NCBI GenBank assembly: GCA_018655015.1
Contig: JABIKK010000008.1
Location: forward strand, 8,791 to 72,790
Direction: 5' to 3'
DNA: 64,000 bases
From: Candidatus Woesearchaeota archaeon
Lineage (GTDB): Archaea > Nanobdellota > Nanobdellia > SCGC-AAA011-G17 > UBA489
The notes below the pieces were generated by a model. The model was not told where the DNA came from and did not search any database. It saw only the letters and a list, made by a program, of their open reading frames with translations. The stretch's first letter is position 1; each line of letters opens with the position of its first letter. Shown here in pieces: positions 25,092 to 62,958 of this stretch. The position numbers and the translations under genes are program-made.

Positions 25092-26039
25092 TTACCTCTT
25101 TATGATTGTTCCACTTTGTCCTATTAATGCTTTTTGTATTTTGTTTGGAGATGTAATTATTGTGTGTTTACCACCTTTTTTTATGAATTTAATCGCGGCC
25201 TCTATTTTTGGACCCATAGAACCTTTTGGGAATTGTCCTTCTTTTAATAGTTTAGAAGCTTCTTTTATGGTTAAGCTTTTTATTGGTTTTTGATTCTTCT
25301 TTTTATAATTGAGATATGCGTTGGGTTCGTTCATAAGAATTATTAATGTTTTTGCTTTTATCGAGTTAGCTAGGCATGCAGATGCTAAATCTTTATCTAT
25401 TACTGCTGGCGCACCATGTAAAATCTTTCCCTTATCTTTAACTATTGGAACTCCGCCGCCGCCTGCCGCAATAACAATTGATTTATTCTTTAGTAATACA
25501 TCAATTATCTTTACATCATCAATGGACTTAGGTTTTGGTGAGGCTACGACTTTTCTCCAACCCCTTCCAACTTGTTCAACAATTTTATAACCTTTTTTCT
25601 TTATTTTTTGCGCTTGCGCTTTGCTGTAAAATGGACCAATGGGTTTTGTAGGGTTTTTGAATGCCGGATCTTTTTTATCTACAATTACTTGTGTTAGTAC
25701 GCTCACTACTGGAATTTTTATTTTATTTTTTGTTAAAACATTTTGTAAACTTTGTTCAATCATGTAACCTAATTCACCCTGTGATTCTGCAACACATACT
25801 TCTAATGGAATTGAGTATGCTTTTCCTAAAGATTCTTCAACACGGATTAGAATATTTCCAACTTGAGGCCCATTTCCATGAGTTATAACTAATTTATTTT
25901 CGTTTTTTATTAATGGAATTAAATATTCCATAGTCTTCTTTGCGTTCTTGAATTGATTAGAAATTGTAGGTTTCTCACCTGTTTTAATGAGGGCATTTCC
26001 TCCTAGTGCTACTACTACCTTTTCACCTCTTCTAAGCAT
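25092..26039 (-). CDS. arcC: carbamate kinase
   Basis: VVALGGNAL and HGNGPQVG signatures, amino-acid kinase fold. Confidence 0.9.
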   Translation of the reverse strand: MLRRGEKVVVALGGNALIKTGEKPTISNQFKNAKKTMEYLIPLIKNENKLVITHGNGPQVGNILIRVEESLGKAYSIPLEVCVAESQGELGYMIEQSLQNVLTKNKIKIPVVSVLTQVIVDKKDPAFKNPTKPIGPFYSKAQAQKIKKKGYKIVEQVGRGWRKVVASPKPKSIDDVKIIDVLLKNKSIVIAAGGGGVPIVKDKGKILHGAPAVIDKDLASACLANSIKAKTLIILMNEPNAYLNYKKKNQKPIKSLTIKEASKLLKEGQFPKGSMGPKIEAAIKFIKKGGKHTIITSPNKIQKALIGQSGTIIKR

Positions 26040-36565: not shown

Positions 36566-39500
36566 TTGTATAAGAAGTATATTACAAAAAAAGGGAAGAA
36601 GGTAGGGCCTTATTATTATGATAGTATTAGATTGAAGAATGGTCGAGTTAAATCTGTTTATCTTGGTAGTGATGAGAAGAAAGCTAGACAGAAATTAAAA
36701 GTTTTAAAGAAAGAAAGTTCTAAGGCTGTTCATAAAAGAAGTAGTGCAACTCTTAAAAAATCTTTAAATCCTAGATCAAACGCCAAATTGATTGGCGATC
36801 ATAATGTTCATGTGAGGGATAGAGTTTTCTTATCTATTGTTTTAATTATGATGTTAGTTAGCTTTATGCATTTTGGAGGTATTATTGGTGGAGATTCTAG
36901 TGAAAGTATTAATGGTGGGTTTGTAAATGAGTTTAGGACTTTCTCTGATATGGCTCGCGAAGGTTTTTCAGAAAGTAATAAAATAACAGGAGAAGTTATT
37001 TTTTCAAATAGAAATGAAATTACTGGAGAATCTATTTTTTCTAAGTCTGTTGATCCCGAAGAACATTCTCATGATGTTTCTTTTTTGGTAAGTGAAAGCT
37101 CAGAGTATAGGTTAAATTTTGAGAATGTTGAAAAATTATTAAGTTTGAAGGTTTCAGGAAGAATTGCTTATTTTGAAGGGGGGATTGCTAAGGTTTTCTT
37201 ATCCGATGTTGACTCTGGGGATACCTATTTAGTTTATGATAGTGAATTATCTAAAGATGAAAATATTTTGGATGCTGTAGGTATAACTGGGAGTGTTGTG
37301 TTAGAGGAAAAGTTAGAGAAATCAAAGAGTTACAAAGATATTGTGTCTTCATTAACGGGGTTCAATGTTGTTGATTCTAAAGGCAAGTTTGTGAATTATG
37401 GGCTATCTAATGGGAGCAATGGTACCGCGATTATTGATTTAAGAAACAAAGATGTTTTTGAAATTGAGTATCCTAAAAAAGAGGGATGGATTGCTTATGA
37501 GGAATATTCTTCAAGAGGTTTAATTGAACCAACTAATATCTCTTTTGAAAGGGTGTTTGGGTTTGACTTTAGTGGATTGAACATTTCTAGGTTTAATGAA
37601 ACGAATACATCATTTAGTACTTCGCCAGAAGGCTCCTATCTTTATGGTTGTAGTTTTTGGGATTTTGAATTTGGAATTTGTTTATCTGATTGGGTTTTCT
37701 TTTTTGATTTAAACAAAACTAATAATTATACTGTTAGTTTGACTACTGAAGTAATGGCCTTTGCTGAAGGCATTTTAGATTTGGATGACGAGGAAGAGAA
37801 AAAACTTGAGGAAGTAGTTGAAGAAGTTGAAGAAAACAAAACAGACTTTTTGATTGATATTTTAGATGTTTTGAACATTACTAGTTATGGTATTGATTCT
37901 TTTGATTCTATTTGTGAAGGTACTTGTAAGATGAAGAATGTTTGGGGTAATAATTTTCTTTTGAAGGTTTATGTTAAGGATTCTATTTTAGATTTAGATT
38001 TAATCGAAACAGAATCTGAGGTTTTAGAGGGAGGAGTGTATTCTCTTTCCATCATTGATGGAATTGGAAGCATTTTATTGGGAGGAGGGGATGGTTCTGA
38101 ATTAGTGGGGGGTGTTGATGATCAAGTTGGAGGGATTACTGAATTCTTTGATAATGGTAATTTTACTGAAGAAGTAGTGCAATTTGGGGCTGTAATTGAT
38201 CAACCTGTTAAGTGGAAGAAAAAAATAATTTTAGATTCTGCAAAGAAAGATGTTGAATTTGAGATCCCTGATACTGCAGAAAATATCACTTTAAAGAAGA
38301 TTGTTAGTGGGAAAATATTGAATGTTATATCTGCAGGATTGGATGAGGGCAATGGTACTATTATCAACTTAACAGAGGGAAATAGTGGGTTTTCTGATAA
38401 TCTATTGAATTCTATGACAGGTAATGCGATAACTGGTATGGCTGTTGCGGAGACACCTTTGTTGGAGAATATTTCTTCAAAAGTCTTGAGTGTTAATGTG
38501 AGTAATAATACTGATACTATTTTTGTGGACGATTTAGTAAATACTGTGGAAGTTGAATATGAAACTCCAGGCCCAAGATTGGAAGTTCAAAATAAAACTA
38601 ATGGGTTTAGAGTTGTTTTAAAATCTGATATTGAGTATGTGAATATTTTTACATTCCTTGATATTCCAGAAACTCCTATGAATAAAGTAAGACTTTACCA
38701 AGTTACAGTGGATAATGTTACGGGGAGAGAATATAGGATTAAACATAATTATACTTTGTATGGGTCTAATAATACTGGATTGGCGAATTATATTGAATGG
38801 ATGATTCCTACTTCAGGAGATGATACTTTTGATATTCAAACTGAAATAAATGCAACGGCGGCAATTCATTTGGATGAGAACTATGTTTATATCAGTGATA
38901 TTTTTGATGAAGTACAATTTGAGGATGTTATATGGAGTGAGACAATCTATAGGGATGATTATGTAAGGGTTACTTTTGAAAAAAACTTAACGAATGGTAG
39001 GTTGATTGATGTGATTGCGAGAAGTAATGGTTCTTTATCTTATTTTGAAATTTATGAAGCTAATACGACTAATTTGGTGGGTAAATCTTCAGTTGTTGAT
39101 TATCCAGAAGTTCAATATATTGAAGTGAGTGGTTTGAGTAAACCTACAGATGTATTTGACTTTAAATTTATGAACTTGGTTAGTGATCCTGAAGACTATA
39201 AGGCTTGTGTCAAGTTGGGTTATTGGGTTTGTGACAGAAATCCGGAATCTTCAGAGAACTGTCATGCGGAGGTAGAAGAAGATTGTAATTCTCCAGTTTA
39301 TGATCTAAATAGAACTTCAACTATGGAGTTTGATTTTATTCACGACGATGTTATTAATTCTACACAGGCGGAAGGTATGATCGTATATATTCAATCAGAA
39401 AGTGCGACACCCAGATATAGATTTTGGAATGAATCTGATGATTTCGAGGCTGAACAAAGTGCTCTGGCTACGGGAAGTGATGGGACTGATGATATTGCAT

Positions 39501-42500
39501 GGGTTGTAATAAAAGGGAATCATGAAAGAAATGAGATGATTCTTGGTACTCAAGATATTGTTGAGGATATAAATATACAAATATATAATGGTACGGCTTG
39601 GAATAATTTAACAGAAGTTACAACTACGGCAGAAATTGAAAATCAAAGGCAATTTGATATTGCTTATGAAGATATATCTGGTGATGCTTTAATTGTTTAT
39701 GAGAATAGTAATGGGCACACTAATACAGATGTAGCCTATAGGATTTGGAATGGTACTGGAATTTCTCCCGAAACTGTTTTTACAGAAGCATCTAACAATG
39801 GAGAGATTCTTTGGGTTAAGTTATTTTCAGAACCGGGAACGGATAATATAATGTTACTAACCCAGAATGATGCCCCTTCAAGCTTTGATCTTTATGCTGT
39901 AGTGTGGAATGGTACTGGTTTTGATACTGATACTGAAGAGATTTTGAATGGGACTGTGGCTGATACAACTCAGCATATGGATTTTAGGTGGGAATCTAAA
40001 ACTAGGGGGGAAGGTTTAGTCATGTATGGAGTGGGAACTAATATCATGTGGAGGACTTATTCTTCTGCTACTGGTTGGGGGAAAGAGAATCCGACTGATT
40101 TGGGTCAATCTGATCGTTCAACTAGATTGTGTTCTGATCCGACGTCCGACCATATAGGTCTTATTCTTTTTGATGGTGGGAATGATATTAATGTTAATGT
40201 CTTTGATGGAACTTCGATGCTTGGGGGGGCACCTAGTCAAGAGGGTTTTGCGGAGTCTCACGGCGTGTATAACTCCAATGTAGGCTGTGCATGGGTTAAT
40301 AGTTCTACAGCAGTTTTTGGATTCGTAGATAATGGATTATTAGCTATTGACTGGATTACTTTTTCAAAAACCGCCCTTTGGAGTACTGGTAATTTAGGAA
40401 CATCTACTTCGACTACAACTAATTTTGCAACTGACGATATTGAAGCTTTAAGGTTTGTAAAACATCCTACCACTGATGAGATAATGGTTGCAGCAATAGA
40501 TAATTTGGAAGATTTAACTACAATTAGATGGGAGGGAACTACACCTATTGTTCCAGGTCACTCTTTATTAGAATCAGCAACTCAAGTAGATCAAGGGCAT
40601 ACTGAAGACGCAAGATTCGATTGGTTTAGATATGATCCTACCCCGAACGTTACTAGTTTAAATCCGACTGGAGAAACCTTTACTGTTTCAACTGCAATCT
40701 CATTAAATGCTACTATTGCTGATAACTTAGTAGTGGATGATGTATTAGCAAATGTTACACATCCAAATGCTACTGTTGAACAGGTTGTACTTGCTGATGC
40801 TGATGCTGATGGGGTATATAATGTTTCATTTACTGGGGCTAGTAATACTGGAACTTATACTGTAAGAATAATTGCTAATGATACAAGTACACATAAAAAT
40901 ATTAATAGTACTGAGACTACAACATTTATAGCTGCGGATGCTCCTGGTGGTGGAGATATTCCTCCAACTGTAACATTAAATGGGCCTGCTAATGGTACGG
41001 TTTATACTGAAGTAGGAAAAATTGTTTTGAATGCGACGGTTGAAGATGCAGAGGATAGTACATTGTTTGTTAGAATTTATGGTAGTAATGGAACCACTTC
41101 TGCTGAATTAGATTCAAAGGATTTGCTTTACTACAATGAATCCGATGCTAATGCTTCTTTTGTAGATTATAATTGGACTGCGCCAGTTTTGGATGCTTCT
41201 GATGATTATCTGTTGTTAGTTCATTTAGATAATAATTCACTTGATTTTGGGGAAAGTTATGATAGCGTCTTTGATTTTGCACCTGCTGATGGGGTACAAA
41301 ATGGAACAATTCAATCTCTTGGTGCAATAAATATTTCTCGGGGAAAGTTTGGAGGGTCTTATTTTTCTACAGCAAGTGGGGCAGATGACACTAATCGTGT
41401 GGATTTTGGAGATCAAGATACATGGATTGATGAAGGGAATATATCCTATTTAATGTGGGTTAAACCCAGAAGTATAACTGCTACAAAGGGTATTTTGGAT
41501 AAAAGGTTAGTTGAGACATTTAATGCAGATGGATTTAGTATTAGACAAGTTGACAGAACTCTGAGAATACGGTTTGATCAGGAAACTTGGGATACAACTG
41601 ATGTTTTTAATGTAAAAACTTGGACACATATTGCCGTTGTTTTTAATGCTAGTAATGGGGCCTTTTTATATCTTGACGGGAGACTAAACGGTTCCTATGG
41701 ATTCGATAATATTACAGCAAATAATATTAATTTTGCGATAGGCAATGCAAGGTCTAATCTGGAGTATACTCATCCTTTTGCAGGATGGATTGATGAAGTT
41801 GCAATAATTAATAGGACTCTTGGGGCAGATGAGGTTCTTGATGCATACAGATTGAAATCTGGAAATCATACTTGGTACTATCAGGTTAATGATTCTGGCG
41901 GGAATAAAACGCTAAGTAATTCGCAATGGTTCTTGATAGATAGGAAACCTAATGTAACTTCATTGTCTTTTACTCCAACTGGACCGAATACAACTCTTGG
42001 ATTGAATTGTACTTTTACACCTTATGATGATTTGGATAGTACTTTGAATGCAACAATAAAATGGTATAATGGGAGTAATACATATTCAACTACTGTTGTT
42101 GAAGGAATGACTTCAGGCAGCGCCTATACTCATAATGTATCTGCTTATGTGCATAGGCATTACCAAGAATGGAATTGTAGTGTGTTGACTACTGATCGTC
42201 AAGGGAGTAATGCAAGTAAGATTAATTCGACTACAAGATCGGTTGTTAACTTTGAGCCCGGAGCACCTACATTGAATACACCTATAGAAACTACAACTTA
42301 CATTGATAGGGTTCCAACATTCAATTGGACGCCTCCTGATGAATTTGGTAAATTGCCAAACACTGGTGATGGTGGTTGTGGAGCTACGTTCTTCTGTGAT
42401 GGTAGGACTTCTGATCCAGATGAAGATCAGGTGACTTATTCATTAAATATAAGCTGTACTACTGGACCAAGTGTATGTGATGATAATCAGCAATTTACTG

Positions 42501-43147
42501 TAACAGAAAATATAACAAATTGTGATTCTAATGGTAATAGTTATTTAGACAATCAAGACAATTGTAATTTCACATTACCTAATGCATTAAGCTATTTCAT
42601 AGATGACGGAAAATATTATACTTGGACAGTCATAACTTCTGATCCAAATGTTACCGAGCCAGATACTCCTGTGGAATTAAACTATAATATTAGTGTTTAT
42701 GTTGCAATAGCTGTTTTGAATAAAAATGCTAACTTCGGAACAATGATTCCTGGTACTACAAATAGTACTTCTGGGTGTAGTCCCTCGGCGGAGTGTGAAC
42801 CACAACCAATTTGGTTACAGAATGCTGGTAACACAGACTTTGATGTGAATTTAACTGGGCCGAGTGATGCTTTGTTTACAGCAATATCTAATCCTCATGC
42901 GATTAGTTATTTTTCTGTGAATGTTAACAATGGTACTGAAGGACAATCATTTAATATGACTGACTCAATTGTTAGCTATACTGCTCTGCCTGCTGTGGGG
43001 ACAGATATATTATTTGTTAATGACTTTGGATGGAATGATAGTGCTGATGAAATTACGATTGATGTTAATGTTTCTGTTCCGGCAAATGAAACTGAAGGAA
43101 CAAAGGGGACTTCGTTAGCATTTACAGGGTGGTATTACATTGCTTAA
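36566..43147 (+). CDS. giant (2193 aa) membrane-anchored surface protein with LamG/concanavalin-A-like domain, many N-glycosylation sequons, and a basic N-terminal cytoplasmic segment
   Basis: N-terminal 90 aa K/R-rich, then TM FLSIVLIMMLVSFMHFGGIIG, then a large extracellular region. The LamG-like segment is WIDEGNISYLMWVKP...WTHIAVVFNASNGAFLYLDGRLNGS...FAGWIDEVAIINRTL. Confidence 0.8.
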   Translation: MYKKYITKKGKKVGPYYYDSIRLKNGRVKSVYLGSDEKKARQKLKVLKKESSKAVHKRSSATLKKSLNPRSNAKLIGDHNVHVRDRVFLSIVLIMMLVSFMHFGGIIGGDSSESINGGFVNEFRTFSDMAREGFSESNKITGEVIFSNRNEITGESIFSKSVDPEEHSHDVSFLVSESSEYRLNFENVEKLLSLKVSGRIAYFEGGIAKVFLSDVDSGDTYLVYDSELSKDENILDAVGITGSVVLEEKLEKSKSYKDIVSSLTGFNVVDSKGKFVNYGLSNGSNGTAIIDLRNKDVFEIEYPKKEGWIAYEEYSSRGLIEPTNISFERVFGFDFSGLNISRFNETNTSFSTSPEGSYLYGCSFWDFEFGICLSDWVFFFDLNKTNNYTVSLTTEVMAFAEGILDLDDEEEKKLEEVVEEVEENKTDFLIDILDVLNITSYGIDSFDSICEGTCKMKNVWGNNFLLKVYVKDSILDLDLIETESEVLEGGVYSLSIIDGIGSILLGGGDGSELVGGVDDQVGGITEFFDNGNFTEEVVQFGAVIDQPVKWKKKIILDSAKKDVEFEIPDTAENITLKKIVSGKILNVISAGLDEGNGTIINLTEGNSGFSDNLLNSMTGNAITGMAVAETPLLENISSKVLSVNVSNNTDTIFVDDLVNTVEVEYETPGPRLEVQNKTNGFRVVLKSDIEYVNIFTFLDIPETPMNKVRLYQVTVDNVTGREYRIKHNYTLYGSNNTGLANYIEWMIPTSGDDTFDIQTEINATAAIHLDENYVYISDIFDEVQFEDVIWSETIYRDDYVRVTFEKNLTNGRLIDVIARSNGSLSYFEIYEANTTNLVGKSSVVDYPEVQYIEVSGLSKPTDVFDFKFMNLVSDPEDYKACVKLGYWVCDRNPESSENCHAEVEEDCNSPVYDLNRTSTMEFDFIHDDVINSTQAEGMIVYIQSESATPRYRFWNESDDFEAEQSALATGSDGTDDIAWVVIKGNHERNEMILGTQDIVEDINIQIYNGTAWNNLTEVTTTAEIENQRQFDIAYEDISGDALIVYENSNGHTNTDVAYRIWNGTGISPETVFTEASNNGEILWVKLFSEPGTDNIMLLTQNDAPSSFDLYAVVWNGTGFDTDTEEILNGTVADTTQHMDFRWESKTRGEGLVMYGVGTNIMWRTYSSATGWGKENPTDLGQSDRSTRLCSDPTSDHIGLILFDGGNDINVNVFDGTSMLGGAPSQEGFAESHGVYNSNVGCAWVNSSTAVFGFVDNGLLAIDWITFSKTALWSTGNLGTSTSTTTNFATDDIEALRFVKHPTTDEIMVAAIDNLEDLTTIRWEGTTPIVPGHSLLESATQVDQGHTEDARFDWFRYDPTPNVTSLNPTGETFTVSTAISLNATIADNLVVDDVLANVTHPNATVEQVVLADADADGVYNVSFTGASNTGTYTVRIIANDTSTHKNINSTETTTFIAADAPGGGDIPPTVTLNGPANGTVYTEVGKIVLNATVEDAEDSTLFVRIYGSNGTTSAELDSKDLLYYNESDANASFVDYNWTAPVLDASDDYLLLVHLDNNSLDFGESYDSVFDFAPADGVQNGTIQSLGAINISRGKFGGSYFSTASGADDTNRVDFGDQDTWIDEGNISYLMWVKPRSITATKGILDKRLVETFNADGFSIRQVDRTLRIRFDQETWDTTDVFNVKTWTHIAVVFNASNGAFLYLDGRLNGSYGFDNITANNINFAIGNARSNLEYTHPFAGWIDEVAIINRTLGADEVLDAYRLKSGNHTWYYQVNDSGGNKTLSNSQWFLIDRKPNVTSLSFTPTGPNTTLGLNCTFTPYDDLDSTLNATIKWYNGSNTYSTTVVEGMTSGSAYTHNVSAYVHRHYQEWNCSVLTTDRQGSNASKINSTTRSVVNFEPGAPTLNTPIETTTYIDRVPTFNWTPPDEFGKLPNTGDGGCGATFFCDGRTSDPDEDQVTYSLNISCTTGPSVCDDNQQFTVTENITNCDSNGNSYLDNQDNCNFTLPNALSYFIDDGKYYTWTVITSDPNVTEPDTPVELNYNISVYVAIAVLNKNANFGTMIPGTTNSTSGCSPSAECEPQPIWLQNAGNTDFDVNLTGPSDALFTAISNPHAISYFSVNVNNGTEGQSFNMTDSIVSYTALPAVGTDILFVNDFGWNDSADEITIDVNVSVPANETEGTKGTSLAFTGWYYIA

Positions 43148-46997: not shown

Positions 46998-48071
46998 ATG
47001 GGTGGTAGTACAAAGAGGGTGAAGGGTCTAACTAGGGTAGAATTTCTCCACCAAACTAACATGATTTCCGTTCTTTTGTTAGTGTTTATTGTTGTTGTTT
47101 TAATTACGTCTTCAAAAATTTTAGAAAGGATGGGTGAAGATGAGATAGAAAGAGCTTATATGACTGGAAGGGCATCTACTGAACAGGTGCAGGGAAATGT
47201 TTCTTTAAATATTATTGATGAGCCTACTACTAATGCAACTATCACTACAACAGCTGTAGCTGCGGCAACCACAATAGGAGATGTACTAACTTCTGGTGGG
47301 AAATTAGGATTTATCCCTGGAAGACTTGAATTGGATATGTTCTATAAGGGGATTGTTGAAAGGGATTTAATTATAAAAAATAATGCTAATTATGAATTGG
47401 ATCTGAGTTTTGGAACTAGTTTGAAGGACTACGTTGTAGTTGAATCTTCAAATATTATTATTGGAAAAGGTGAATCTGGGACCGTTACAGTTAGATTCAA
47501 TGGAAAGGACTTAGGAGTTATTACAGGTTACTTATCTGCTACTGGCAGCGGATTAAAAGGTTATATTCCCATTGTTTTAAATGTTGGATCCGCTCGCGCT
47601 ACGGGTCTTTTGAAAGTTACTATCCCCTCTGAGTTTAAGGAAGTTAATAGTGGCGATGATATCTTAGTTTCCGTGGAACTTGATGGATTTAATGGGGATG
47701 TTGTTGAGATAGTTTACATAATCAAAGATTCAGAGAATAATGAATTAATTAGGACTACACAGTCAATGACTATTGGAGACTCAGCTAGATTTGATAAGAC
47801 TTTAACTATGCCTAATGTAAGGGATGGATTATACATTGTGGGCGTGGAAGTAAGGTATGCAGGAATGACTTTGGTTGATTCTGAAATTTTAACTGTAGGG
47901 CATTATGAGCCATTCTCTGAGAAACCTTCTATTGTTGGGGGACTTGGATTAAATCCTGTTACGTTTAAGATAATACTCTTGTTAGTTATGATTATGATAA
48001 TAGTGCTATTCGCAACATACTCTCGTGAAGTGGGTAGGATTGGAGAGATTGAAAGAAGAAAGAAATTATAA
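46998..48071 (+). CDS. surface protein with an N-terminal signal anchor, beta-rich domains and a C-terminal TM anchor
   Basis: N-terminal TM VLLLVFIVVVLITSS. C-terminal FKIILLLVMIMIIVLFATY plus basic tail. Confidence 0.55.
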   Translation: MGGSTKRVKGLTRVEFLHQTNMISVLLLVFIVVVLITSSKILERMGEDEIERAYMTGRASTEQVQGNVSLNIIDEPTTNATITTTAVAAATTIGDVLTSGGKLGFIPGRLELDMFYKGIVERDLIIKNNANYELDLSFGTSLKDYVVVESSNIIIGKGESGTVTVRFNGKDLGVITGYLSATGSGLKGYIPIVLNVGSARATGLLKVTIPSEFKEVNSGDDILVSVELDGFNGDVVEIVYIIKDSENNELIRTTQSMTIGDSARFDKTLTMPNVRDGLYIVGVEVRYAGMTLVDSEILTVGHYEPFSEKPSIVGGLGLNPVTFKIILLLVMIMIIVLFATYSREVGRIGEIERRKKL

Positions 48072-51000
48072 TTTTAAACTTACTACTTTTGAGATTCCTG
48101 TTTCATGCATACTAACCCCATATACATAATCTGCTTCTGTGATAACATTGTCATTGTGTGAGATCATGATGTATTGTGCAGTTTCTGAGTATTTTGAGAC
48201 TAATTCTGAAAGTAGTTCGGAGTTTCTTTTGTCCAATGCTGCATCAACTTCATCTAGTAGGTAGAATGCCATTGGTTGGAATTCTTGGATTGCGAAAATA
48301 AATGCTAATGCAGCCATTGTTTTTTCTCCACCTGAAAGAGATTTAATATCTAAGAATCTATTTCCTGTAATTCTAACTCTTATATCGATTCCGCCACTTA
48401 AAGGGTCTTCTTTATTTTCTAGTTCCATACTGGCTTCACCTTTCTTTGAGAGTGATAAGAAAATTCTTCCGAAGTTACTGTTTAGTTGTTTGAATGTTTT
48501 CATGAATATTGATTTTTTATTTTTTTCAATTTCAACTATCATATTAAGAACATCTTCTCTTTCTGTGTCTAATGTATCTCTCTTTTCTATTAGCCTAGTG
48601 TATTCCTTTAGAATTTCTTCGTAAACTTCTAATGCTCGCATGTTCACATTCCCTATTTTGCTAAGCATGGATTCAAAATTTCTAATTTCTAACTTTAATT
48701 CTTCTACAGTCATGCCTCTTCTTAGTTGAATTCCCTTAAATTCTTCAAATTCACCATTTAGAGCCTCTACTTCAGCGGTTATCTTGGCTTGGGTTATTGA
48801 GTGTTCATTTATTCTATCATGGATTGTTTTTTCTTTTGAAGCTTCAAGGAGTATGCTTGATTCCAGTTTTTGTATACCTTCGCTTATTTTGTTTCTCTTT
48901 GAGAATAGATCTTTGTATTGTTTTTGGAATTTTGTTTTTTCTGATTCTTTTTTGTTTAATCTTGAAGTTTGTTCTTTCAAAAGTGCGTCTAAGTTGTTCA
49001 GTTCTTTCTTGAATTCATCTGTTTCCTTTTCACTATTTTTTATTAACTGCAGTATTTTTTCTTTTTCAGGAGTGTAAATATTTAATATTTGAATTTCTAT
49101 GTTTTTTACTTGTGTGTTTTTTTCAACAACTTCTTCTCTTGTTTTTAGTCTTCTATTTTCTGATGTTTCTAATTCTCCTTTTCCCTCTGATGGTCCAGAA
49201 GTTCCTCTTAGGTTAGTTCTTTCTATTTTTATTTTTTGAATTTCATTGTTTAAATTATTCATTACTTTTCCAAGTTCTGAGTACTCACTATATGCTTTAT
49301 CTGCTTTAATGGAATCTCTTTGTTTTTTTAGATCTGTTAAACTTAATCCAGAAGAAGTTCTTTCATGCTTGATTATGTCTGCTTCTAATTCAGATTTTTT
49401 GTTTCTTAGTTCTGAAATATTATTTTCGTTTTCTATTTTTCTATTTTCTAATGTTGTTTTAAGCTCATTTGCCTTATCTATTTTTATACTGAGGTTGTCT
49501 AGATCTGAAGATAAACTCTTTTCTTGGAAGCCCAATCCTATTCTCTTAGTTCTGTATCCACCAATCATTGCGCCAGACATTTCTACTAAATCTCCTTCTA
49601 ACGTGACCATTCTTACTTTTCCTATACCTATTCTTCTCGCTGTTTCAATGTTTTCTACAACTAATGTGTTTGCGAATACGTAAGCAAAGATGTCCTTGAA
49701 TTTAGAATCGAAGCTGATTAACTCAATGGCTGAACCGTAGATTCCAGGGCCTTTGATCCTTGTTGCAGGTCTTCCCCTTATTTTATTCATTGGAAGGAAT
49801 GTTGCGATTCCTACTCTGGAAGTTTTTAATGTTTTAATACATTCAGCTGCAACTTTATCATCTTGAACAACTAAAGATCTTGTTCTGGGACCTGCTGCAA
49901 CTTCTAATGCTGTTGAGAATTTCTTTTCTACTTCTCCTAATTCACTTACAGTGCCAAATATTTTTGGGTTTCTAAGGTCCTTTATCTTTTTAATTGCTAG
50001 ATCTACTGAGGCAGATGCTCTCATACTGTTTTTTTGGGTTTGTATTTTGAATAGGCGTTCATTGAGAATTGAATAGTCTTCTTTTACTTTTTTTAATTGG
50101 GTGTACAGAACTGTGTCTTCTGCAGCTCTTTTTTCTAGGTCTCTTGTGAGGTTCTCTAGTTCCTTCTTTGTTTTTTGTAAGTTTGTTGATTTTTCTATTT
50201 CTTCAACTGAAGCTATCTTTTCAGTGATTGTGCTAATGTCTGCATCCAATTTAAATTTTTTTTGTAGGAGTTCTTGATTCCTTTCTTGTAAGTTTTCATA
50301 TTCCTTTAATTTTTCATCTAAATTAGTTTCTATTTTTTCAAGTTCAGTATTGTCAGATAAACCAAGCCTTGATTTGATTTGATTTATTTTTTGCGATTGT
50401 TTTGTTTCCTTTTCCTTTAAATCTTTTATTTGATCTATGAGTTCTTTTTTGCTTTCTTCTAAACCATTGATTGTTTTTTTAGTATCTTCGAAGGAGGTTT
50501 CTAATTGCTTTTTTCTTTCAGATATTTTTGTTATTTCTGATTTACATGAAGATAATCTCTCTGTATTCTTTGCGGTTTCGGTTTTTAGCTGCTCTATGTT
50601 ATCTTGGAGGAGTATTGCTTCTTTCTCTCCTTTTTCTTCAATTTCGTTGTTTAAGTCTTGAAGGTCTTTCTTTTTTTCAGATATTTTGCTTCTAACTTCT
50701 CTTTCATTATCGCCGAATTTCTTTAATTGTGATTCTTGTTTCTTTATTTTTGATTTGACTTCTTCAAGTTTCTTTTCTTTATCCGTTATTTGAACATGAA
50801 GATATGTTGCCTTATTTGATTTGATGTTTTTTTCTAATTTTCTGTATTTTTCTGCTTGATCTTTTTCTTTTTTTAGTTCTCTTAAGTATGCTTCACGTTC
50901 TTTTAGAATTAGACTTACGTCATTAATTTGTAATTCAACTTTCGTTAATGAGTTCATTGCTTTGTTTTTTTTATCTTCAAAGATTGAGATCCCAGCTATT

Positions 51001-51491
51001 TCCTCTATAAGTTCTCTTCTTGGGTCTGGTCTCATTTCCATGAACCTTACAATGTCTCCTTGTAAAATAATATTGTGTCCATCTGGATCAATTTTTGCTG
51101 CAGATAGTAATTCTAGAATTTGTTGTCTTGTTAGAACTTGATCGTTAATTTTATAGACTGAGTTTCCAGTGTTTTTTATAACTCTTGTAAGTTTTACTTC
51201 ATCAGTTTCTATTGGAAATTCTTGGTTATCATTTGAGAAAATAATTGAGACTTCTGCTTCTTTTTGAGGGGATCCTTTTTTACCGCCATTAAAAATTAAG
51301 TTAGAACTTCTTTCTGCACGCATTGACTTTGCTGAAAGTTTTCCAAGAACAAAACAAAGTGCATCCATTACATTTGATTTACCTGAACCATTTGGTCCTA
51401 TAATGCAATTGAAACCTGATCCGAACTCTAGGTCAATTGGTTTAGCGAAGCTTTTGAATCCTTTAAGCCTCATAGATTTAATGATTGCCAT
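48066..51491 (-). CDS. smc: SMC chromosome segregation ATPase
   Basis: Walker A GPNGSGKSN, long coiled coils with a hinge, signature LSGGEKT, Walker B LDEVDAALD. Confidence 0.9.
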   Translation of the reverse strand: MAIIKSMRLKGFKSFAKPIDLEFGSGFNCIIGPNGSGKSNVMDALCFVLGKLSAKSMRAERSSNLIFNGGKKGSPQKEAEVSIIFSNDNQEFPIETDEVKLTRVIKNTGNSVYKINDQVLTRQQILELLSAAKIDPDGHNIILQGDIVRFMEMRPDPRRELIEEIAGISIFEDKKNKAMNSLTKVELQINDVSLILKEREAYLRELKKEKDQAEKYRKLEKNIKSNKATYLHVQITDKEKKLEEVKSKIKKQESQLKKFGDNEREVRSKISEKKKDLQDLNNEIEEKGEKEAILLQDNIEQLKTETAKNTERLSSCKSEITKISERKKQLETSFEDTKKTINGLEESKKELIDQIKDLKEKETKQSQKINQIKSRLGLSDNTELEKIETNLDEKLKEYENLQERNQELLQKKFKLDADISTITEKIASVEEIEKSTNLQKTKKELENLTRDLEKRAAEDTVLYTQLKKVKEDYSILNERLFKIQTQKNSMRASASVDLAIKKIKDLRNPKIFGTVSELGEVEKKFSTALEVAAGPRTRSLVVQDDKVAAECIKTLKTSRVGIATFLPMNKIRGRPATRIKGPGIYGSAIELISFDSKFKDIFAYVFANTLVVENIETARRIGIGKVRMVTLEGDLVEMSGAMIGGYRTKRIGLGFQEKSLSSDLDNLSIKIDKANELKTTLENRKIENENNISELRNKKSELEADIIKHERTSSGLSLTDLKKQRDSIKADKAYSEYSELGKVMNNLNNEIQKIKIERTNLRGTSGPSEGKGELETSENRRLKTREEVVEKNTQVKNIEIQILNIYTPEKEKILQLIKNSEKETDEFKKELNNLDALLKEQTSRLNKKESEKTKFQKQYKDLFSKRNKISEGIQKLESSILLEASKEKTIHDRINEHSITQAKITAEVEALNGEFEEFKGIQLRRGMTVEELKLEIRNFESMLSKIGNVNMRALEVYEEILKEYTRLIEKRDTLDTEREDVLNMIVEIEKNKKSIFMKTFKQLNSNFGRIFLSLSKKGEASMELENKEDPLSGGIDIRVRITGNRFLDIKSLSGGEKTMAALAFIFAIQEFQPMAFYLLDEVDAALDKRNSELLSELVSKYSETAQYIMISHNDNVITEADYVYGVSMHETGISKVVSLKL

Positions 51492-52554: not shown

Positions 52555-53198
52555 TATTCTGATAAACTCTTTTGTTTTTTAGTATTAGCTACTTTTTCAT
52601 ATGTTGCCCAAGTTCTTCTAAATATCTCTGGACATTTTTCCCAGTTTTCTTTTAAGAATTCTTTTGTTTTAGGATCACTTGGATATCCTGAACCACAATC
52701 TCCGTGCTTATCGTGTAAGTTTTCTATTTCTCTGTCTCTTGTTACTTTTGCCAAAATTGATGCAGCTGAACAAACTTCATAGTTTTCATCTGCTTTATGT
52801 TCCAAGATCATTTCTACTTCTTTGTTTTCAATGAATTGAAATAAGAATTCCTTAAATGCTTCAATATTATTGCTTGGTGCGTCAATTATTACTTTGTCTG
52901 GATTAAGGTTGTTAATTATGTCTGCTATTTTTAGCCCTTCTAGTTTGTTTAAGTTTAGGTCTGGATTGTTTAGGGCAGCGTCTATTTCACCTGGTTCAAC
53001 AATTAGTATGAAGTAATCAGAGATTGCCTTTATTTTATCAAATAAATCTTCTCTTCTTTTTCTTGTTAGTAATTTAGAATCTTTTACTTCTAGGTCTTTT
53101 AGGAGTTTTCTGTTTTCTTCTTCAACCATTACTCCTGCCATGACTAGTGGTCCAATTAAAGGCCCTCTTCCCGCTTCGTCAATTCCACATACTTTCAT
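52551..53198 (-). CDS. rnhB: ribonuclease HII
   Basis: VCGIDEAGRGPLIGPLVMAGV active-site motif. Confidence 0.9.
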   Translation of the reverse strand: MKVCGIDEAGRGPLIGPLVMAGVMVEEENRKLLKDLEVKDSKLLTRKRREDLFDKIKAISDYFILIVEPGEIDAALNNPDLNLNKLEGLKIADIINNLNPDKVIIDAPSNNIEAFKEFLFQFIENKEVEMILEHKADENYEVCSAASILAKVTRDREIENLHDKHGDCGSGYPSDPKTKEFLKENWEKCPEIFRRTWATYEKVANTKKQKSLSEY

Positions 53199-54123
53199 TT
53201 GAATCTTCCTTGTTTAATTGGTTTAATAGTTTTTCTAGTTCTTGAATGTCTTTAGCCCTGCTTAGCTGATCTCTTAGGTGGTGGCTGTTAGATATTCCTT
53301 TTGTGAAATCTAATGATCTCATTTTTAATAATTTGAAATTATGTTCTAGTTTTTTATATTCATTGAATAGATCTAGTTTTTCTTCCGTTGTTTGTTTTAT
53401 TATTTTTCCTGTTTTTAGGTAATGTTGTATTTGTTTGAAAATCCAAGGGTTGTTCCTTGCTGCCCTTCCAACCATTATGTAATCACAGCCCGTTTCTTTT
53501 AGCATTTTTTCAGCCGAAATTGGATCTGTTATATCTCCATTACCTATTATTGGGATTGAAAGATTATCTTTTAATTGTTTGATTAGTTTCCAGTCTGCAT
53601 GTCCTGAATAACCTTGTTCTTGTGTTCTTGCGTGGATTGTTATTGCTGAACATCCTGCAGCTTCAATTACTTTTGCAATTTCTAATGCTTCTGGCTTTTT
53701 GAAACCTGATCGCATTTTGACTGTGATGGGTTTCGGAATGTTTTTAACTAATGCCTCTATTATTTCTTTTATCTTATTTTTTTCTTTAAGTAATGCTGAG
53801 CCGTAGCCTTCTTTTACTATTTTTTTTGATGGGCAACCTAAATTTAGATCTATTACATCAAATTTTTTATGTAGTTTTTTTGCTGCTGCGACTAAAATTT
53901 CTGGATTTCTTCCAAAGAGTTGTAGTCCTACTGGAGAATCTTTTTTAGAAGTTGAAGCCATTTCTATGGTTTTTTTAGAATCTCTTGTTACTGCTAGGGC
54001 AGATATTTGTTCTGTGAATGTCATTGCAACCCTGTATTTTCTACAGAGGAGTCTAAATGGAAGTGAGGTAACTTCAGCCATAGGGGCTAGGATTAATTTG
54101 TTTTTTAGTTTTGGGAACTCCAT
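53179..54123 (-). CDS. dus: tRNA-dihydrouridine synthase
   Basis: LAPMAEVTSLPFR, catalytic NLGCPS, TIM-barrel FMN motifs. The ORF-track N-terminal 21 aa (to 54186) are the translation of the adjacent tRNA gene, so the start is reset to MEFPKLK at 54123. Confidence 0.85.
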   Translation of the reverse strand: MEFPKLKNKLILAPMAEVTSLPFRLLCRKYRVAMTFTEQISALAVTRDSKKTIEMASTSKKDSPVGLQLFGRNPEILVAAAKKLHKKFDVIDLNLGCPSKKIVKEGYGSALLKEKNKIKEIIEALVKNIPKPITVKMRSGFKKPEALEIAKVIEAAGCSAITIHARTQEQGYSGHADWKLIKQLKDNLSIPIIGNGDITDPISAEKMLKETGCDYIMVGRAARNNPWIFKQIQHYLKTGKIIKQTTEEKLDLFNEYKKLEHNFKLLKMRSLDFTKGISNSHHLRDQLSRAKDIQELEKLLNQLNKEDSNESMWN

Positions 54124-54132
54124 TTTGAGAAA

Positions 54133-54207
54133 TAGCGAGGGCTGGATTTGAACCAGCGACCTCCGGGTTATGAGCCCGACGGACACTCCTAACTGTCCTA
54201 CCTCGCT
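54133..54207 (-). tRNA. initiator tRNA-Met (anticodon CAU), archaeal type
   Basis: Reverse complement AGCGAGGTAGGACAG...TCGGG-CTCATAA-CCCGG...GCTGGTTCAAATCCAGCCCTCGCTA. A1:U72 pair, three consecutive G:C pairs closing the anticodon stem, CAT anticodon. Confidence 0.8.
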
Positions 54208-54250: not shown

Positions 54251-55042
54251 TTATTCAGAAAGTTTAGCTCTAATTTGTTCAGGGAGGTAAATACTAAAAT
54301 TACTGTCTGGGTGATAAGTTGCGAATCCTGATTCGGATCTGTCTAATCCTCTTCTGGATTCATCTTTTTTTAATGCTCTTTTAGCTGCAAACATTGCTTG
54401 ATCTGCATTTTTAATTGTCTCCACCATACTGTTTTCTTTAGGTGAATATAATGCGGCTCCAATTGAAGATGGTTGGCATTTTAGGTCTTGATTCATTGCA
54501 CCTGCAACTCTAAATCCAATATTTTCTAATGCTTGGTATGTTTTAACTCTTGGGAGTAGAACTAAAAATTCATCTCCGCCAATTCTGCCCAATTCTGAAT
54601 CTTCTGTTAATTTTCTGAAAACAATATCTTCTTCTAATGAATATGTCCTTCTATCTTTACTGAGTTCATATACGGTTCTTCTAGATTTTCTTCTATCTCC
54701 TTTGTGACCTGTACGGAATATGTTGGATAAAGTCTCTGCAGTGTCAGTTAATACTTGGTCTCCTGCATCATGACCCTGAAAATCATTCACTTCTTTGAAA
54801 CCCATTAGGTCAAAAAATAGTACTCCTGTGGGTGTTTGAGTTGTCTCAATTTCTTCAACAAGGTGATCAATGCCACTTCTTGCAAGTACTTGAGTTAAGC
54901 TATCTGTGTTCATTGCTTGAAATAGAATTTTTTTTGCATCTTTGTCTGGATATGCTCTGTCATACTCAAATAGTTCCCTGATCCATTCTTGACTAGATGG
55001 TTTGCCATTTGGCATGAATCCTTCTTCGTGTTTGTTTGTCAT
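54251..55042 (-). CDS. GGDEF-domain protein (diguanylate cyclase-like), stand-alone
   Basis: VLFFDLMGFKEVNDFQGHDAGDQVL matches the GGDEF N-terminal consensus (DxDxFKxxNDxxGHxxGDxxL). Intact RIGGDEFLVLLP active-site motif, with a ~35-aa insertion before it. Confidence 0.7.
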   Translation of the reverse strand: MTNKHEEGFMPNGKPSSQEWIRELFEYDRAYPDKDAKKILFQAMNTDSLTQVLARSGIDHLVEEIETTQTPTGVLFFDLMGFKEVNDFQGHDAGDQVLTDTAETLSNIFRTGHKGDRRKSRRTVYELSKDRRTYSLEEDIVFRKLTEDSELGRIGGDEFLVLLPRVKTYQALENIGFRVAGAMNQDLKCQPSSIGAALYSPKENSMVETIKNADQAMFAAKRALKKDESRRGLDRSESGFATYHPDSNFSIYLPEQIRAKLSE

Positions 55043-55179: not shown

Positions 55180-55938
55180 ATGAATAAATCTTTATCTGAA
55201 AGAAATAAGAGAAATGTTAATGTTAGGTGGAACAAGCAATATGAATTATTAAGGAAGCATATTGAGAATTTCCCTAAAGATAGATATTTATTGTTAAAAA
55301 CACGTTTGTCTTCTAATATTGCTGGTGACGGAAGTGTTAGTGTAAGGAAAGAAAATAAAAATCAAAAAAGTGTTCATTATACTATTTCTTTTTATCCCGA
55401 TGAAATGAATATGTTAAATTGTTTTCTTAGGGATTTTGAGGAACTCTATTTGAAAAAGCCTACTGTAAAAAATATGGGGAAATATTATACTGTTCGTGTT
55501 GATTCAAAATTTGCCGTTTTAGATTTATTGGAAGAAACTAACTATGGTTCTTTAGAGTGGAAACTACCGGAAAATTTATTGAAAAATAAAAAACTAAAAG
55601 TTGAATGGTTGAAAGCTTTCTTTGATTGTGAATCTCACGTTGCTAAAAGCTGTATTCAATTACAAAGTGTAAATCAAAAGGGTATAAACCAAATAAAAGG
55701 ATTACTTGAAGAAATAGGCATATCTTGTAAGATCTATAGTTATGAAAGAAAAAATAAAAATTGGAATACAAACTATATCCTTTGCATAATGTCTAAGGAA
55801 GAGAGACTGAAGTATCTTGATAGGATAGGTTTTAATAATCTAAAAAAACTGAAATCTCTAAAAGAGACGCTTTATGCCAGGATGCCCGAGTTGGTTAAGG
55901 GGCCGGTCTCGAAAACCGGTGTCCGCAAGGACATGTAG
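55180..55938 (+). mobile_element. LAGLIDADG-type homing endonuclease-like gene (divergent motifs) whose 3' end overlaps tRNA-Ser
   Basis: Motif 1 LLKTRLSSNIAGDGSVSV and motif 2 WLKAFFDCESHVAKS in the usual two-domain spacing. The last ~20 codons read through the first 63 nt of tRNA-Ser(CGA). Confidence 0.55.
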
Positions 55939-55959
55939 GTTCAAATCCTGCTCCTGGCG
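55876..55959 (+). tRNA. tRNA-Ser (anticodon CGA), class II with long variable arm
   Basis: GCCAGGATGCCCGAGTTGGTTAAGGGG-CCGGT-CTCGAAA-ACCGG-variable arm GTCCGCAAGGAC-...TTCAAAT...TCCTGGCG. Acceptor 7 bp. Confidence 0.8.
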
Positions 55960-56014
55960 CTTATTCTTAAATGAAAAGGATTAAATTTTTAAACATAAAT
56001 TCTAATTTAATGCT

Positions 56015-60444: not shown

Positions 60445-60795
60445 GTGAAGACAACAAAGCATAGAAAAAAGAAACAGAAATTTAGCCTTCTTGATCAATT
60501 TCCTTGTGAGGATGCTTGGCTTGAGAAAGGACAACCTTTTTTGACTATTGTTTTAGTTCTAGCCTCAGTTTTCGTTGTAGATTCGTTGAATACTGATAAT
60601 TCTGTTGGATTTTCTTTAATTGATGAAGATTTTTGCGGGAATAATATTTGCGATAAGTATGAAGATGCATACTCTTGTTCAGAGGATTGTGAACCTAGTT
60701 GTGGTGATGACTTAATTACTCATGATGAAGAATGTGAAGTAAATTTCCATTGTGATGTAGGTTATAATTGTAATGGATGTAGTTGTGTTAGATAA
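60445..60795 (+). CDS. small membrane-anchored Cys-rich protein
   Basis: Basic N-terminus, TM, then FCGNNICDKYEDAYSCSEDCEPSCGDD, a Cys-rich repeat similar to the one in the 21476 protein. Confidence 0.45.
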   Translation: MKTTKHRKKKQKFSLLDQFPCEDAWLEKGQPFLTIVLVLASVFVVDSLNTDNSVGFSLIDEDFCGNNICDKYEDAYSCSEDCEPSCGDDLITHDEECEVNFHCDVGYNCNGCSCVR

Positions 60796-60945
60796 TATTA
60801 TCTTTAGTTATTTTGAATGATTTTTCACACCAAACACATTTCTTTCTTTTATTTGTTAAATCTAGATGATTAAAGACTGTTAGTTTAGGTTGTCTAACTT
60901 CCATCTTTTGCTTTTTATTGCATTTAGTGCATCTTACTTCGATTA

Positions 60946-62958
60946 TCATTTTTTCTTAAGAGATACTTTGTTTATTACTAATGTTGCTGAATGTTTGGAA
61001 TCTTTTTGGATTGTTTGTTTTTCTATATTTAGTTGTTTTTTGAATAATGGGGCATCTAGGACTAATGTTTCGAATTCTCCGCCTTCCCCTGCTATGTTTA
61101 TTTGAAGCTTTCTATTTAGATTGATTAGTTTGTTAATATGTTCTTTTGTGATTGTTTTGCCTAGCCATGTAGCGTCAAATCCTTCTGCTGCGATTTTAGT
61201 CATTATGAATTTGAAATTGTTTTTTAGTAAATTGTTCATTTCTGTTTCTTGATCCATATGCCATAATGGAGAGAAACATTTTAAGTTTAGTTTATCACAG
61301 ATTTCTTCAATTCTTGTTCTTTGATAGTTTGAGAATAGTGCTCCAGTTATGATCCCTTGAATTTTGTATTTTTCTTTGGCTTTTTTTATTGCTGTTTCTA
61401 ATTCTTTTAATTCTACTTCTTTTTTACCTTCTGTTTTTTGTATTATTATTGGTAGATTGAGTGCTTCTGCTTGTTTTTTGGCTAGGTTAATTGTAGGGGT
61501 ATGATACATGTATGAGTCTTTGTTTTTTGAATCGATTGTGATTAAACAAGAAATATCATAGTTTAGTCTATCTTGTATGTGTAATGCGTAGACGCTGTCC
61601 TTTCCTGTTGATAGTAGGGAACCTAATTTTAGATTCTTTCTTTTTAGTATTTTTGAGAAGTATTTTGCTTTGTAGGTGTCTTTTGTTAATTTGGATGTTA
61701 GTTTACTTATACCGCTACTGTACTGTGCTGCGTTTCTTTTTAGTTTAGTTAGTTCATCTGGGAGTTTGAGTTCTCTTGCAACTTTTCTCAAAAGTGTTTT
61801 TGTTTCTCCTGTTTTATTTTCATTTGGGATGTTTAAGCATGCTTGGACTAGTTTCTTGTCTAGGTATGGGAGTCTTAGTTCAATATTATGTGCCATTGAG
61901 AGAACGTCATCTCTGTAGGTATCCCTTTCATAGATTCTTCTTAGGTTGGATAATGAGTCTAGTGAAATGTCTTGGGCCAAGGACATTCTTTTGTAGCCTC
62001 CGAAGATATCGTCTGCTCCTATTCCTGAAAAGATTACTTTGATATTATCTTTTTGTGCTTCTTTTAAGGCGAAGTACATTGTTGCTCCGACTTCAACTTT
62101 TACAGGGTCTGCTGTTTCAATTAAGTTGATTATTTTAGGTAGGTGTTCTTTTAGTATTTCTTTGTTTATTTTTACTAGTTTTAGTTTGAAGTTTAGTTTT
62201 TTAGCTATTTTTTTTGCGTTGTCTATTTCTTTTGATTTTGTTTCTGCAACTGTCATGTATGCTATGAAGTTAGTTTTGTTTTGTTTTAGAATATGTGCTA
62301 GTAGCGTGGAGTCTATTCCTCCAGAGAATAGGAGTCCTAGGTCTTTTGAAGGAATTCTTTTCTTAATTGCCTTAGTTAGTAATGGTTTTATTTTGGTTAC
62401 TTTATGATTTATTTTAAAGAAATCTTGGTTGAGGAATGTTAGTTTTTTATTTTTGTAAATAATTATCTTTCTTGGGTTTAGTTCTTCTGGTTCGAATTCT
62501 TTGATTGCTTTTCTTTCTGAAGCGAAGATTAGATGTTTATTGTAGTGGAACCATAGTGGTTTGATTCCTAAGGGGTCTCTTGCTAGGAATGTGGCGTTGG
62601 TTTTTTTATTATGTAATACGAATGAGAATACTCCATCTAATTGAGGAAGTACTTTTTCTATTGTTTGTTTGTTTAGTAGGTCAAATAGTAATTCTGCGTC
62701 GTTTTGTGATTCTAGTTTGTGTTTGGTTTTTAGTTCTTTCCAGTTGTAGATTTCACAGTTTGTTGCGAAGATGAAATTTTTGTTTTCAAGAGGTTGTTTT
62801 TTGTTTCCAACTACTGAATGTAGGCAATGTGAGAATGTGAAGTTTTTATTAGAAATGGAATCTTTGTTATCTATGCCTCTGTAAGATATTCTTTTGAGGG
62901 CCTTGCTAGATATTTCTTTGTGATTCTTAATGTTAATAGCACCAGTTATCCCGCACAT
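60946..62958 (-). CDS. fusion protein: glutamine-hydrolysing asparagine synthetase (AsnB-like) plus C-terminal MJ0570/Dph6-type PP-loop ATP pyrophosphatase domain
   Basis: N-terminal MCGITGA (Ntn Cys2), first PP-loop LLFSGGIDSTLLAHI. A second module starts around residue 437: SLLSTGKDSVYALHI...DSYMYHTPTINLAKKQAEALNLPI, diagnostic of the diphthine-ammonia ligase/MJ0570 family. Confidence 0.8.
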   Translation of the reverse strand: MCGITGAINIKNHKEISSKALKRISYRGIDNKDSISNKNFTFSHCLHSVVGNKKQPLENKNFIFATNCEIYNWKELKTKHKLESQNDAELLFDLLNKQTIEKVLPQLDGVFSFVLHNKKTNATFLARDPLGIKPLWFHYNKHLIFASERKAIKEFEPEELNPRKIIIYKNKKLTFLNQDFFKINHKVTKIKPLLTKAIKKRIPSKDLGLLFSGGIDSTLLAHILKQNKTNFIAYMTVAETKSKEIDNAKKIAKKLNFKLKLVKINKEILKEHLPKIINLIETADPVKVEVGATMYFALKEAQKDNIKVIFSGIGADDIFGGYKRMSLAQDISLDSLSNLRRIYERDTYRDDVLSMAHNIELRLPYLDKKLVQACLNIPNENKTGETKTLLRKVARELKLPDELTKLKRNAAQYSSGISKLTSKLTKDTYKAKYFSKILKRKNLKLGSLLSTGKDSVYALHIQDRLNYDISCLITIDSKNKDSYMYHTPTINLAKKQAEALNLPIIIQKTEGKKEVELKELETAIKKAKEKYKIQGIITGALFSNYQRTRIEEICDKLNLKCFSPLWHMDQETEMNNLLKNNFKFIMTKIAAEGFDATWLGKTITKEHINKLINLNRKLQINIAGEGGEFETLVLDAPLFKKQLNIEKQTIQKDSKHSATLVINKVSLKKK

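Follow-up and report, generated by a model that had tools for sequence, protein, structure and literature searches.

A protein joining a glutaminase, an asparagine synthetase-like domain and Dph6 in a woesearchaeotal genome: a second ATP site kept without the catalytic glutamate

The last step of diphthamide synthesis, in which the diphthine--ammonia ligase Dph6 acts, is to our knowledge the least studied one in archaea. The stretch of 64,000 nucleotides considered here (the window; contig JABIKK010000008.1 of a Candidatus Woesearchaeota archaeon) contains a gene in which a Dph6 domain follows a glutaminase domain and a domain resembling the synthetase part of asparagine synthetase AsnB, so that two different PP-loop domains are present in one protein. 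Such an arrangement, with a class-II glutamine amidotransferase (GAT-II) and an Asn_Synthase_B_C PP-loop domain N-terminal to DUF71, was reported for Methanohalophilus mahii, Methanosalsum zhilinae and Candidatus Nanosalinarum, together with the proposal that both PP-loop domains receive ammonia released by glutamine hydrolysis (de Crecy-Lagard et al., 2012; PMC3541065). A reviewer of that paper, L. Aravind, asked which of the PP-loops uses the ammonia, and what the asparagine-synthetase-like one catalyses (PMC3541065). These are the questions raised by the present locus. No later experimental work on the fusion was found in literature searches, and the idea of an ammonia supply has stood since 2012 as a hypothesis, for a fusion that is widespread in archaea. 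The architecture and this idea being already published, and the protein already annotated, a previous sequence-only reading of the window, which arrived at both, is essentially a rediscovery.

As judged from sequence comparisons, the fusion protein would very probably be the organism's diphthamide synthetase, that is, perform the Dph6 function, and this is the most secure point. Its middle domain belongs to a distinct archaeal subfamily, which has a complete ATP/pyrophosphate (PPi) site and is devoid of the glutamate of asparagine synthetases. The gene had been read as a single open reading frame (ORF) of 670 amino acids (aa) joining three modules, and it is found at exactly 60946-62958 on the minus strand, with Pfam and NCBIfam profiles matching the modules in that order. 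Its features are as follows, aa numbers being those of the fusion protein.

60946..62958 (-): whole fusion gene, coding for glutaminase, AsnB-like PP-loop domain and Dph6 in this order; 670 aa and a TGA stop (ORF list, domain profiles)
62425..62958 (-): class-II (N-terminal nucleophile, Ntn) glutamine amidotransferase domain, aa 1-178 (GATase_7 and GATase_6 matches)
61639..62403 (-): AsnB-like synthetase domain (PP-loop ATP pyrophosphatase), aa 186-440, including the C-terminal helices leading into Dph6 (Asn_synthase, 1.4e-42)
62308..62325 (-): first PP-loop, SGGIDS, aa 212-217 (read in the sequence)
62020..62022 (-): Ile313, where asparagine synthetases have the catalytic Glu, within SG-I-GADD (HMMER and MAFFT alignments agree)
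60949..61632 (-): Dph6 domain (diphthine--ammonia ligase, MJ0570/PF0828 family), aa 443-670 (TIGR03679, phmmer, Foldseek)
61594..61611 (-): second PP-loop, STGKDS, aa 450-455, differing from the usual SGGKDS (read in the sequence)
61069..61086 (-): EGGEFE motif, aa 625-630, corresponding to PF0828 E183, E186 and E188 (invariant in 119 homologues)

The protein begins with MCGITG, and the motifs quoted by the sequence-only reading (SGGIDS; STGKDSVYALHI, at aa 450-461; DSYMYHTP, at aa 481-488) are all present in it. The profile check of domain boundaries proposed at that time places GATase_7 at aa 52-153 (5e-24), Asn_synthase from aa 190 (1.4e-42) and Diphthami_syn_2 at aa 447-657 (2.9e-60), all within the same ORF. 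An AlphaFold2 model of the 670 residues has a mean predicted local distance difference test (pLDDT) of 94.8 and a predicted template modelling score (pTM) of 0.93, values that imply a fixed arrangement of the three domains, which are therefore predicted to form one rigid body. The domains are also equally constrained: mean pairwise identity is 44-50%, and 17-20% of the columns are at least 90% conserved. These and the following residue counts refer to an alignment of 119 close homologues, unless another set is named.

Several layers of evidence indicate that the C-terminal domain is a full Dph6 orthologue, as far as sequence and fold comparison can tell. It reaches 268.7 bits on the NCBIfam profile Dph6_archaeal TIGR03679 (cut-off 197.3), in agreement with the MJ0570 family membership that had been read from the sequence, while the paralogous DUF71 families remain far under their cut-offs of 250 (PAB0415_fam 69.5, TTX_0299 51.1). 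The phmmer comparison with PF0828 (3rjz) gives 3.1e-49, and Foldseek superposes the domain on PF0828 and PH1257 with template modelling (TM) scores of 0.94-0.96 and a root-mean-square deviation of 1.2-1.6 A. The equivalents of PF0828 S44, E78, Y103, Q104, E183, E186 and E188 are kept in all 119 proteins, and Y45 is matched throughout by Tyr or Phe; these residues are highlighted in PMC3541065, and they are the proposed contacts with elongation factor 2 (EF-2). Compared with the standalone archaeal Dph6 proteins (PF0828, PH1257, MJ0570; TIGR03679), the domain shares about 39% identity, the fold and the signature residues, whereas the window protein carries 440 extra N-terminal residues and has STGKDS rather than SGGKDS. 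The second position of this PP-loop is Ser in 79, Thr in 27 and Gly in 13 homologues. In a sample of 58 Dph6 domains, S[S/T]GKD[S/C] is limited to the fusion clade, and the standalone Dph6 proteins with a detectable motif have SGGKD[S/G]. A rough neighbour-joining (NJ) tree, which carries no support values, puts the fusions of Methanosarcinales, of lineages related to the anaerobic methanotrophic archaea (ANME) and of DPANN archaea in one Dph6 clade, and a Nanosalina pair on a long branch elsewhere.

The route leading to the substrate of Dph6 is probably present, since a dph5 gene, the member seen, exists on the same contig (L089:931-1656; 213.7 bits on TIGR00522, cut-off 114.3), about 7 kb from the fusion gene and about 6 kb past window position 64000. 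Unrelated genes lie in between, coding among others for a protein kinase and a protein of TsaC/Sua5 type. The scan of window ORFs revealed neither Dph2 nor EF-2. Likewise, neither a second dph6 nor a canonical asnB appears among the window ORFs scanned (10 with Pfam and 20 with NCBIfam), about 11 ORFs of at least 120 aa between 9.4 and 52.5 kb lying outside that scan.

The middle domain presents a different situation. The roles of its residues were taken from the structural paper on human asparagine synthetase (ASNS), in which Glu-364 is needed for catalysis, both E364A and E364Q being inactive, Lys-466 is essential and Arg-48 touches the substrate glutamine (PMC6748925); Glu-364 corresponds to E. 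coli Glu348 and Lys-466 to Lys449. The window protein shares with E. coli AsnB (1ct9) and human ASNS (6gq3) the two-domain fold, with a Foldseek TM score against 1ct9 of 0.79-0.80 (target-normalised, the glutaminase domain being included in the alignment), the glutaminase residues Cys1, Asn74, Glu76 and Asp98, the PP-loop, and the equivalents of Asp351, Asp384, Arg387, Glu398 and Lys449, the last one as Arg. However, this part is about 110 residues shorter, and the protein scores slightly under the cut-off of TIGR01536 (asn_synth_AEB; 256.9 against 267.1 bits) and reaches 233.4 against a cut-off of 499 on PRK09431 (AsnB), it has Cys in place of the glutamine-binding Arg, VKVE in place of the TTxR segment (VKVG/E in the family) and Ile313 in place of Glu348/Glu-364. 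This last substitution (SG-I-GADD against SG-E-GSDE) is obtained both with HMMER against human ASNS and in the MAFFT alignment of the family. The position is Leu in 100 and Val in 14 of the close homologues, and in the fused proteins checked it is occupied by Leu, Val, Ile, Met, Phe, Asn, Ser, Ala, Thr or Gly, never by Glu.

The ATP/PPi site, for its part, is strictly kept, namely SGGxDS (S, G, D and S invariant, the first G in 117/119), Ser346-Gly347, the Asp351 equivalent (Asp or Glu), Arg387 and Lys449 (Lys or Arg). The Lys449 equivalent, at position 408, is Arg in the window protein, and Lys in 95 and Arg in 23 members of the family. The Asp384 equivalent is conserved in the family and that of Glu398 is present in the window protein; human ASNS binds the positive charge of its substrate with three acidic residues, two of which are kept here, the third being hydrophobic. 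The absence of the catalytic Glu, although the ATP/PPi site is complete, argues against asparagine synthesis in the usual way, and we consider it probable that the middle domain does not make asparagine canonically. The earlier description of a complete AsnB module therefore holds for the fold, which is whole, but not for a canonical asparagine synthetase, and the view of this part as an ordinary asparagine-synthetase adenylation domain has to be given up, Glu being replaced by Ile here and never occurring in the fused proteins checked.

The subfamily to which this domain is assigned can be recognized by Leu46, His47, Cys68, Lys287 and a hydrophobic residue at 313 (L-H-C-K-L type). The same signature marks complete proteins of about 440-500 aa that stand alone; they end exactly where the fusions run on into Dph6, and their nearest relatives are the fusions, with about 50% identity. 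A rough NJ ordering intermixes the fused proteins with the standalone ones, and canonical sequences (Arg, Leu, Gly, Thr and Glu at the signature positions) as well as intermediate ones (Gln at 348) fall outside; L-H-C-K together with a residue other than Glu at 348 is common to the fusions, including those of Nanosalina. No relevant literature was found on this archaeal AsnB-like subfamily (MJ1056, MJ1116). Among the loci listed, no AsnB-like gene lies within 3 kb of a standalone dph6. A gene of 207 aa located directly downstream of a standalone AsnB-like gene (L007, L008) was considered as a candidate Dph6, and it is not Dph6.

In the N-terminal domain, Cys2 (Cys1 of the mature protein), Asn67, Glu69 and Asp87 correspond to Cys1, Asn74, Glu76 and Asp98 of E. 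coli AsnB, and these equivalents are kept in 118-119 of the 119 homologues. Where AsnB has the Arg that binds glutamine (human Arg-48, E. coli Arg49), the window protein reads S-H-C-L-H-S. The Arg pairs with Leu46 in a MAFFT alignment with the E. coli sequence, and with position 45 according to the H-R-L-H of Methanolobus; under either pairing (Leu46 or Cys45) the window protein has no Arg. We lean, by a small degree, towards the view that the N-terminal amidohydrolase of the window protein would use glutamine or a related amide as a source of ammonia, the missing Arg being the main caveat.

The glutaminase has nevertheless not been retained in every lineage. The proteins of Methanohalophilus type start with MSRI, and thus have no Cys1, and carry Asp for Asn74, Asp for Glu76 and Gly for Asp98; those of a Methanospirareceae and a Halobacteriota metagenome-assembled genome (MAG) have Asp for Asn74 and Ser for Asp98. 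In a MAG labelled Methanosarcinales, a protein of 500 aa (L020:3034-4536) consists only of the AsnB-like synthetase and Dph6 (289 bits on TIGR03679 for the latter half), with no glutaminase domain and no glutaminase gene upstream. In all of these, i.e., the Methanohalophilus-type proteins, those of both MAG types and the 500-aa protein, the middle PP-loop, Arg387 and Lys449 are intact. The same pattern was seen in 54 fused cluster representatives, which come from the 150 best hits of the AsnB-like half in a 50%-identity clustered library: all three sites are intact in 35, and in seven the glutaminase is degenerate or missing while both ATP sites are intact, some of these possibly being N-terminally truncated gene calls. 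In two more (P0246 and P0165, which start with MTRI) the glutaminase and the PP-loop and EGGE motif of Dph6 are degenerate, without loss of the middle PP-loop or of Lys449. That the middle ATP site remains once the glutaminase has decayed speaks against a mere relic and gives some weight to the existence of two adenylation sites; from these comparisons, the middle ATP site probably has a function of its own. The question put by the reviewer in 2012 is thereby sharpened, as the ATP site outlasts the glutaminase. Methanolobus, with the intact form, and the Methanohalophilus type, with a dead glutaminase, constitute a natural pair for comparison.

Putting these elements together, the reading that we propose is that of a diphthamide synthetase with a built-in supply of amide nitrogen, whose second ATP site serves something other than asparagine synthesis; we hold it as evenly balanced between being right and wrong. 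By homology, the Dph6 domain would adenylate the carboxylate of diphthine on EF-2 with ATP, ammonia then replacing AMP. The Ntn-type amidohydrolase, with its Cys1, would most likely produce the ammonia from glutamine or a similar amide, and this could be passed on through the AsnB-like body, which would form one rigid unit with the amidohydrolase. As for the middle domain, it is a candidate for an ATP-dependent gate or ammonia conduit, or for the adenylation of a second carboxylate, other than that of aspartate. Intramolecular ammonia supply is plausible because Cys1, Asn74, Glu76 and Asp98 are intact, the Dph6 domain is a bona fide one and the body is predicted to be rigid.

Four observations weigh against this proposal. 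First, the glutamine-contacting Arg is replaced by Cys here, position 45 being Cys in 75, Leu in 8 and Arg in only 9 of the 119 close homologues (Arg is found in about half of the Methanolobus-group proteins), so the amide donor could differ or the activity could be reduced. Second, the glutaminase is dead or missing in lineages where both ATP sites are kept, and therefore ammonia supply cannot be the whole reason for the fusion. Third, the standalone AsnB-like genes are not beside dph6 in the loci examined. Fourth, yeast Dph6 reportedly works with free ammonium in vitro (Su and colleagues, 2012). The glutamine-dependent diphthamide synthetase of the sequence-only reading consequently stands in part: the Dph6 orthologue, the glutaminase residues and the rigid model speak for it, but the delivery of ammonia does not explain the fusion completely. 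Its other option, an enzyme with two adenylation sites, is supported by the strict conservation of both PP-loops.

This latter option leads to the alternative that survives best, in which the middle PP-loop acts on a non-aspartate carboxylate, possibly of EF-2 or diphthine, and would itself be the conserved partner of Dph6 in function, with the glutaminase as an optional accessory. We consider it a tentative possibility. It is favoured by the survival of the middle ATP site through glutaminase decay or loss, by P0246 and P0165, where that PP-loop alone is left, by a middle domain as conserved as Dph6 within a three-domain body predicted to be rigid, and by the retention of two of the three charge-binding acidic residues of human ASNS with a hydrophobic third. 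AsnB-family enzymes that act on non-aspartate carboxylates, such as beta-lactam synthetase (1jgt), carbapenam synthetase (1q15) and TsnB9 (7ylz), have altered residues in the substrate pocket. These three enzymes were recovered by Foldseek as sharing the fold of the AsnB-like part; unlike the window protein, they are mostly without a working glutaminase and have no second fused PP-loop domain. On the other side, the standalone members of the subfamily have no gene-neighbourhood link to dph genes, and a conserved ATP site can also reflect regulation or folding. Moreover, in yeast Dph6 alone is reportedly enough for the amidation, which weighs in the same direction.

A wider version of this alternative, somewhat more doubtful still, would extend it to all the AsnB-like proteins of L-H-C-K-L type, fused or standalone, as ATP-using partners, so far overlooked, of archaeal diphthamide synthesis or of a different amidation linked to EF-2, whose PP-loop would adenylate a non-aspartate substrate. 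If this were true, these lineages would form diphthamide with two ATP sites, and what metabolic reconstructions of DPANN archaea count as an orphan "asparagine synthase" would be an enzyme of translation-factor modification instead of an amino-acid biosynthesis gene.

A truly bifunctional enzyme, according to the wording of the 2012 paper, would have an AsnB part making free asparagine and a Dph6 part making diphthamide, one glutaminase feeding both. The whole AsnB fold (TM about 0.8), the TIGR01536 score that nearly reaches its cut-off and the conservation of the PP-loop, the Asp351 equivalent, Asp384, Arg387 and Lys449 are in line with this, as is the maintenance of an orphan AsnB in DPANN genomes: two genome papers describe an orphan asparagine synthase among the few amino-acid biosynthesis genes kept, and one of them reports its expression. 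Nevertheless, we regard a bifunctional enzyme as unlikely, given that the required Glu is missing from every fused protein checked and its replacement by Ala or Gln inactivates the human enzyme, that the TTxR segment is changed, and that sequences of canonical AsnB type (R-L-G-T-E) are located outside the clade holding the fusions. Because the required residue is missing, metabolic reconstructions of DPANN archaea should not credit the AsnB half with asparagine biosynthesis unless there is evidence for it, and, if their orphan asparagine synthases are the fusion, that annotation would mislead.

Finally, a false merger of two neighbouring genes through a frameshift or an assembly join, which the sequence-only reading had named as a danger, has practically no chance of being the explanation and is refuted by the unbroken frame, the conserved linker, the six contigs and the hundreds of fused homologues. 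Indeed, the junction between the AsnB-like and Dph6 parts (...KRKNLKLGSLLSTGKDS...) is read in one frame, with neither stop nor frameshift, and the identical protein (P0001, named diphthine--ammonia ligase of Candidatus Woesearchaeota archaeon at NCBI) is found on six contigs and is present in NCBI, MGnify, JGI and ENA. More than 120 full-length homologues have identities of 45-100%.

The distribution of the fusion across archaea, which the sequence-only reading had suggested to follow, is wide. There are at least about 17 fused loci in species-representative genomes, belonging to Woesearchaeota, Nanoarchaeota, Iainarchaeota, Altiarchaeota and Candidatus Nanosalina (Nanohaloarchaeota), and also to Methanosarcinales, one Methanospirareceae MAG (ANME-1-related) and one Halobacteriota MAG. 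A further search added Methanomethylovorans, Methanohalophilus and many cultured Methanolobus species, complete genomes of the latter being among the carriers. Among the loci listed, no split-but-adjacent arrangement of the two halves was seen, and no conserved operon was found around the fusion gene in the loci compared.

With respect to the AsnB-DUF71 proteins described in 2012, the domain order in one ORF and the proposed role of the glutaminase are the same, and the rough NJ tree places the Methanosarcinales fusions and the window protein in one Dph6 clade. The window protein differs in being of the Woesearchaeota type of DPANN archaea and in keeping the glutaminase nucleophile; the Methanohalophilus-type proteins compared here, among which M. 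mahii itself is not included, have none of Cys1, Asn74, Glu76 and Asp98. Eukaryotic Dph6 (yeast YLR143W) consists of the Dph6 core and two C-terminal RidA/YjgF domains, likewise a module proposed to generate ammonia (PMC3541065).

Concerning the genomic context, one small ORF adjoins the fusion gene.

60788..60949 (-): ORF of 53 aa with two CxxC pairs (zinc-ribbon-like); its ATG overlaps the TGA of the fusion gene (ATGA)

This ORF is called as a gene on another contig, and in the closest relative a copy with 67% identity immediately follows the fusion gene on its downstream side (L009:5052-5207). It is absent from more distant fusion loci and has no significant Pfam match; it is possibly co-translated with the fusion, and its link to it is putative.

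The remainder of the window is archaeal in character, with an archaeal GluRS, aCPSF1, RtcB, an aminotransferase and a glutamate dehydrogenase-like gene. On the minus strand, the region 21476-26039 includes an ornithine carbamoyltransferase (22824-23756) and a carbamate kinase (25092-26039), interleaved with two large ORFs (21476-22834 and 23753-25084) that have no NCBIfam match, and looks like an arginine-deiminase-type cluster yielding ATP and ammonia. Two very large ORFs are also present, one of 2193 aa at 36566-43147 (+) and one of 1141 aa at 48066-51491 (-); the ORF at 35137-36453, a neighbour of the former, gives a weak match of S-layer type (PACE-CTERM, below cut-off). A dihydrouridine synthase ORF in 53179-54207 (-) has its listed GTG start (54186) inside a tRNA-Met gene of the same strand (54133-54207), so that its true start is probably further downstream. 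A protein with a GGDEF (diguanylate cyclase) domain, unusual for an archaeon, is encoded at 54251-55042, and it is adjoined by a gene for a LAGLIDADG-domain protein (55180-55938), the end of which overlaps a tRNA-Ser gene (55876-55960).

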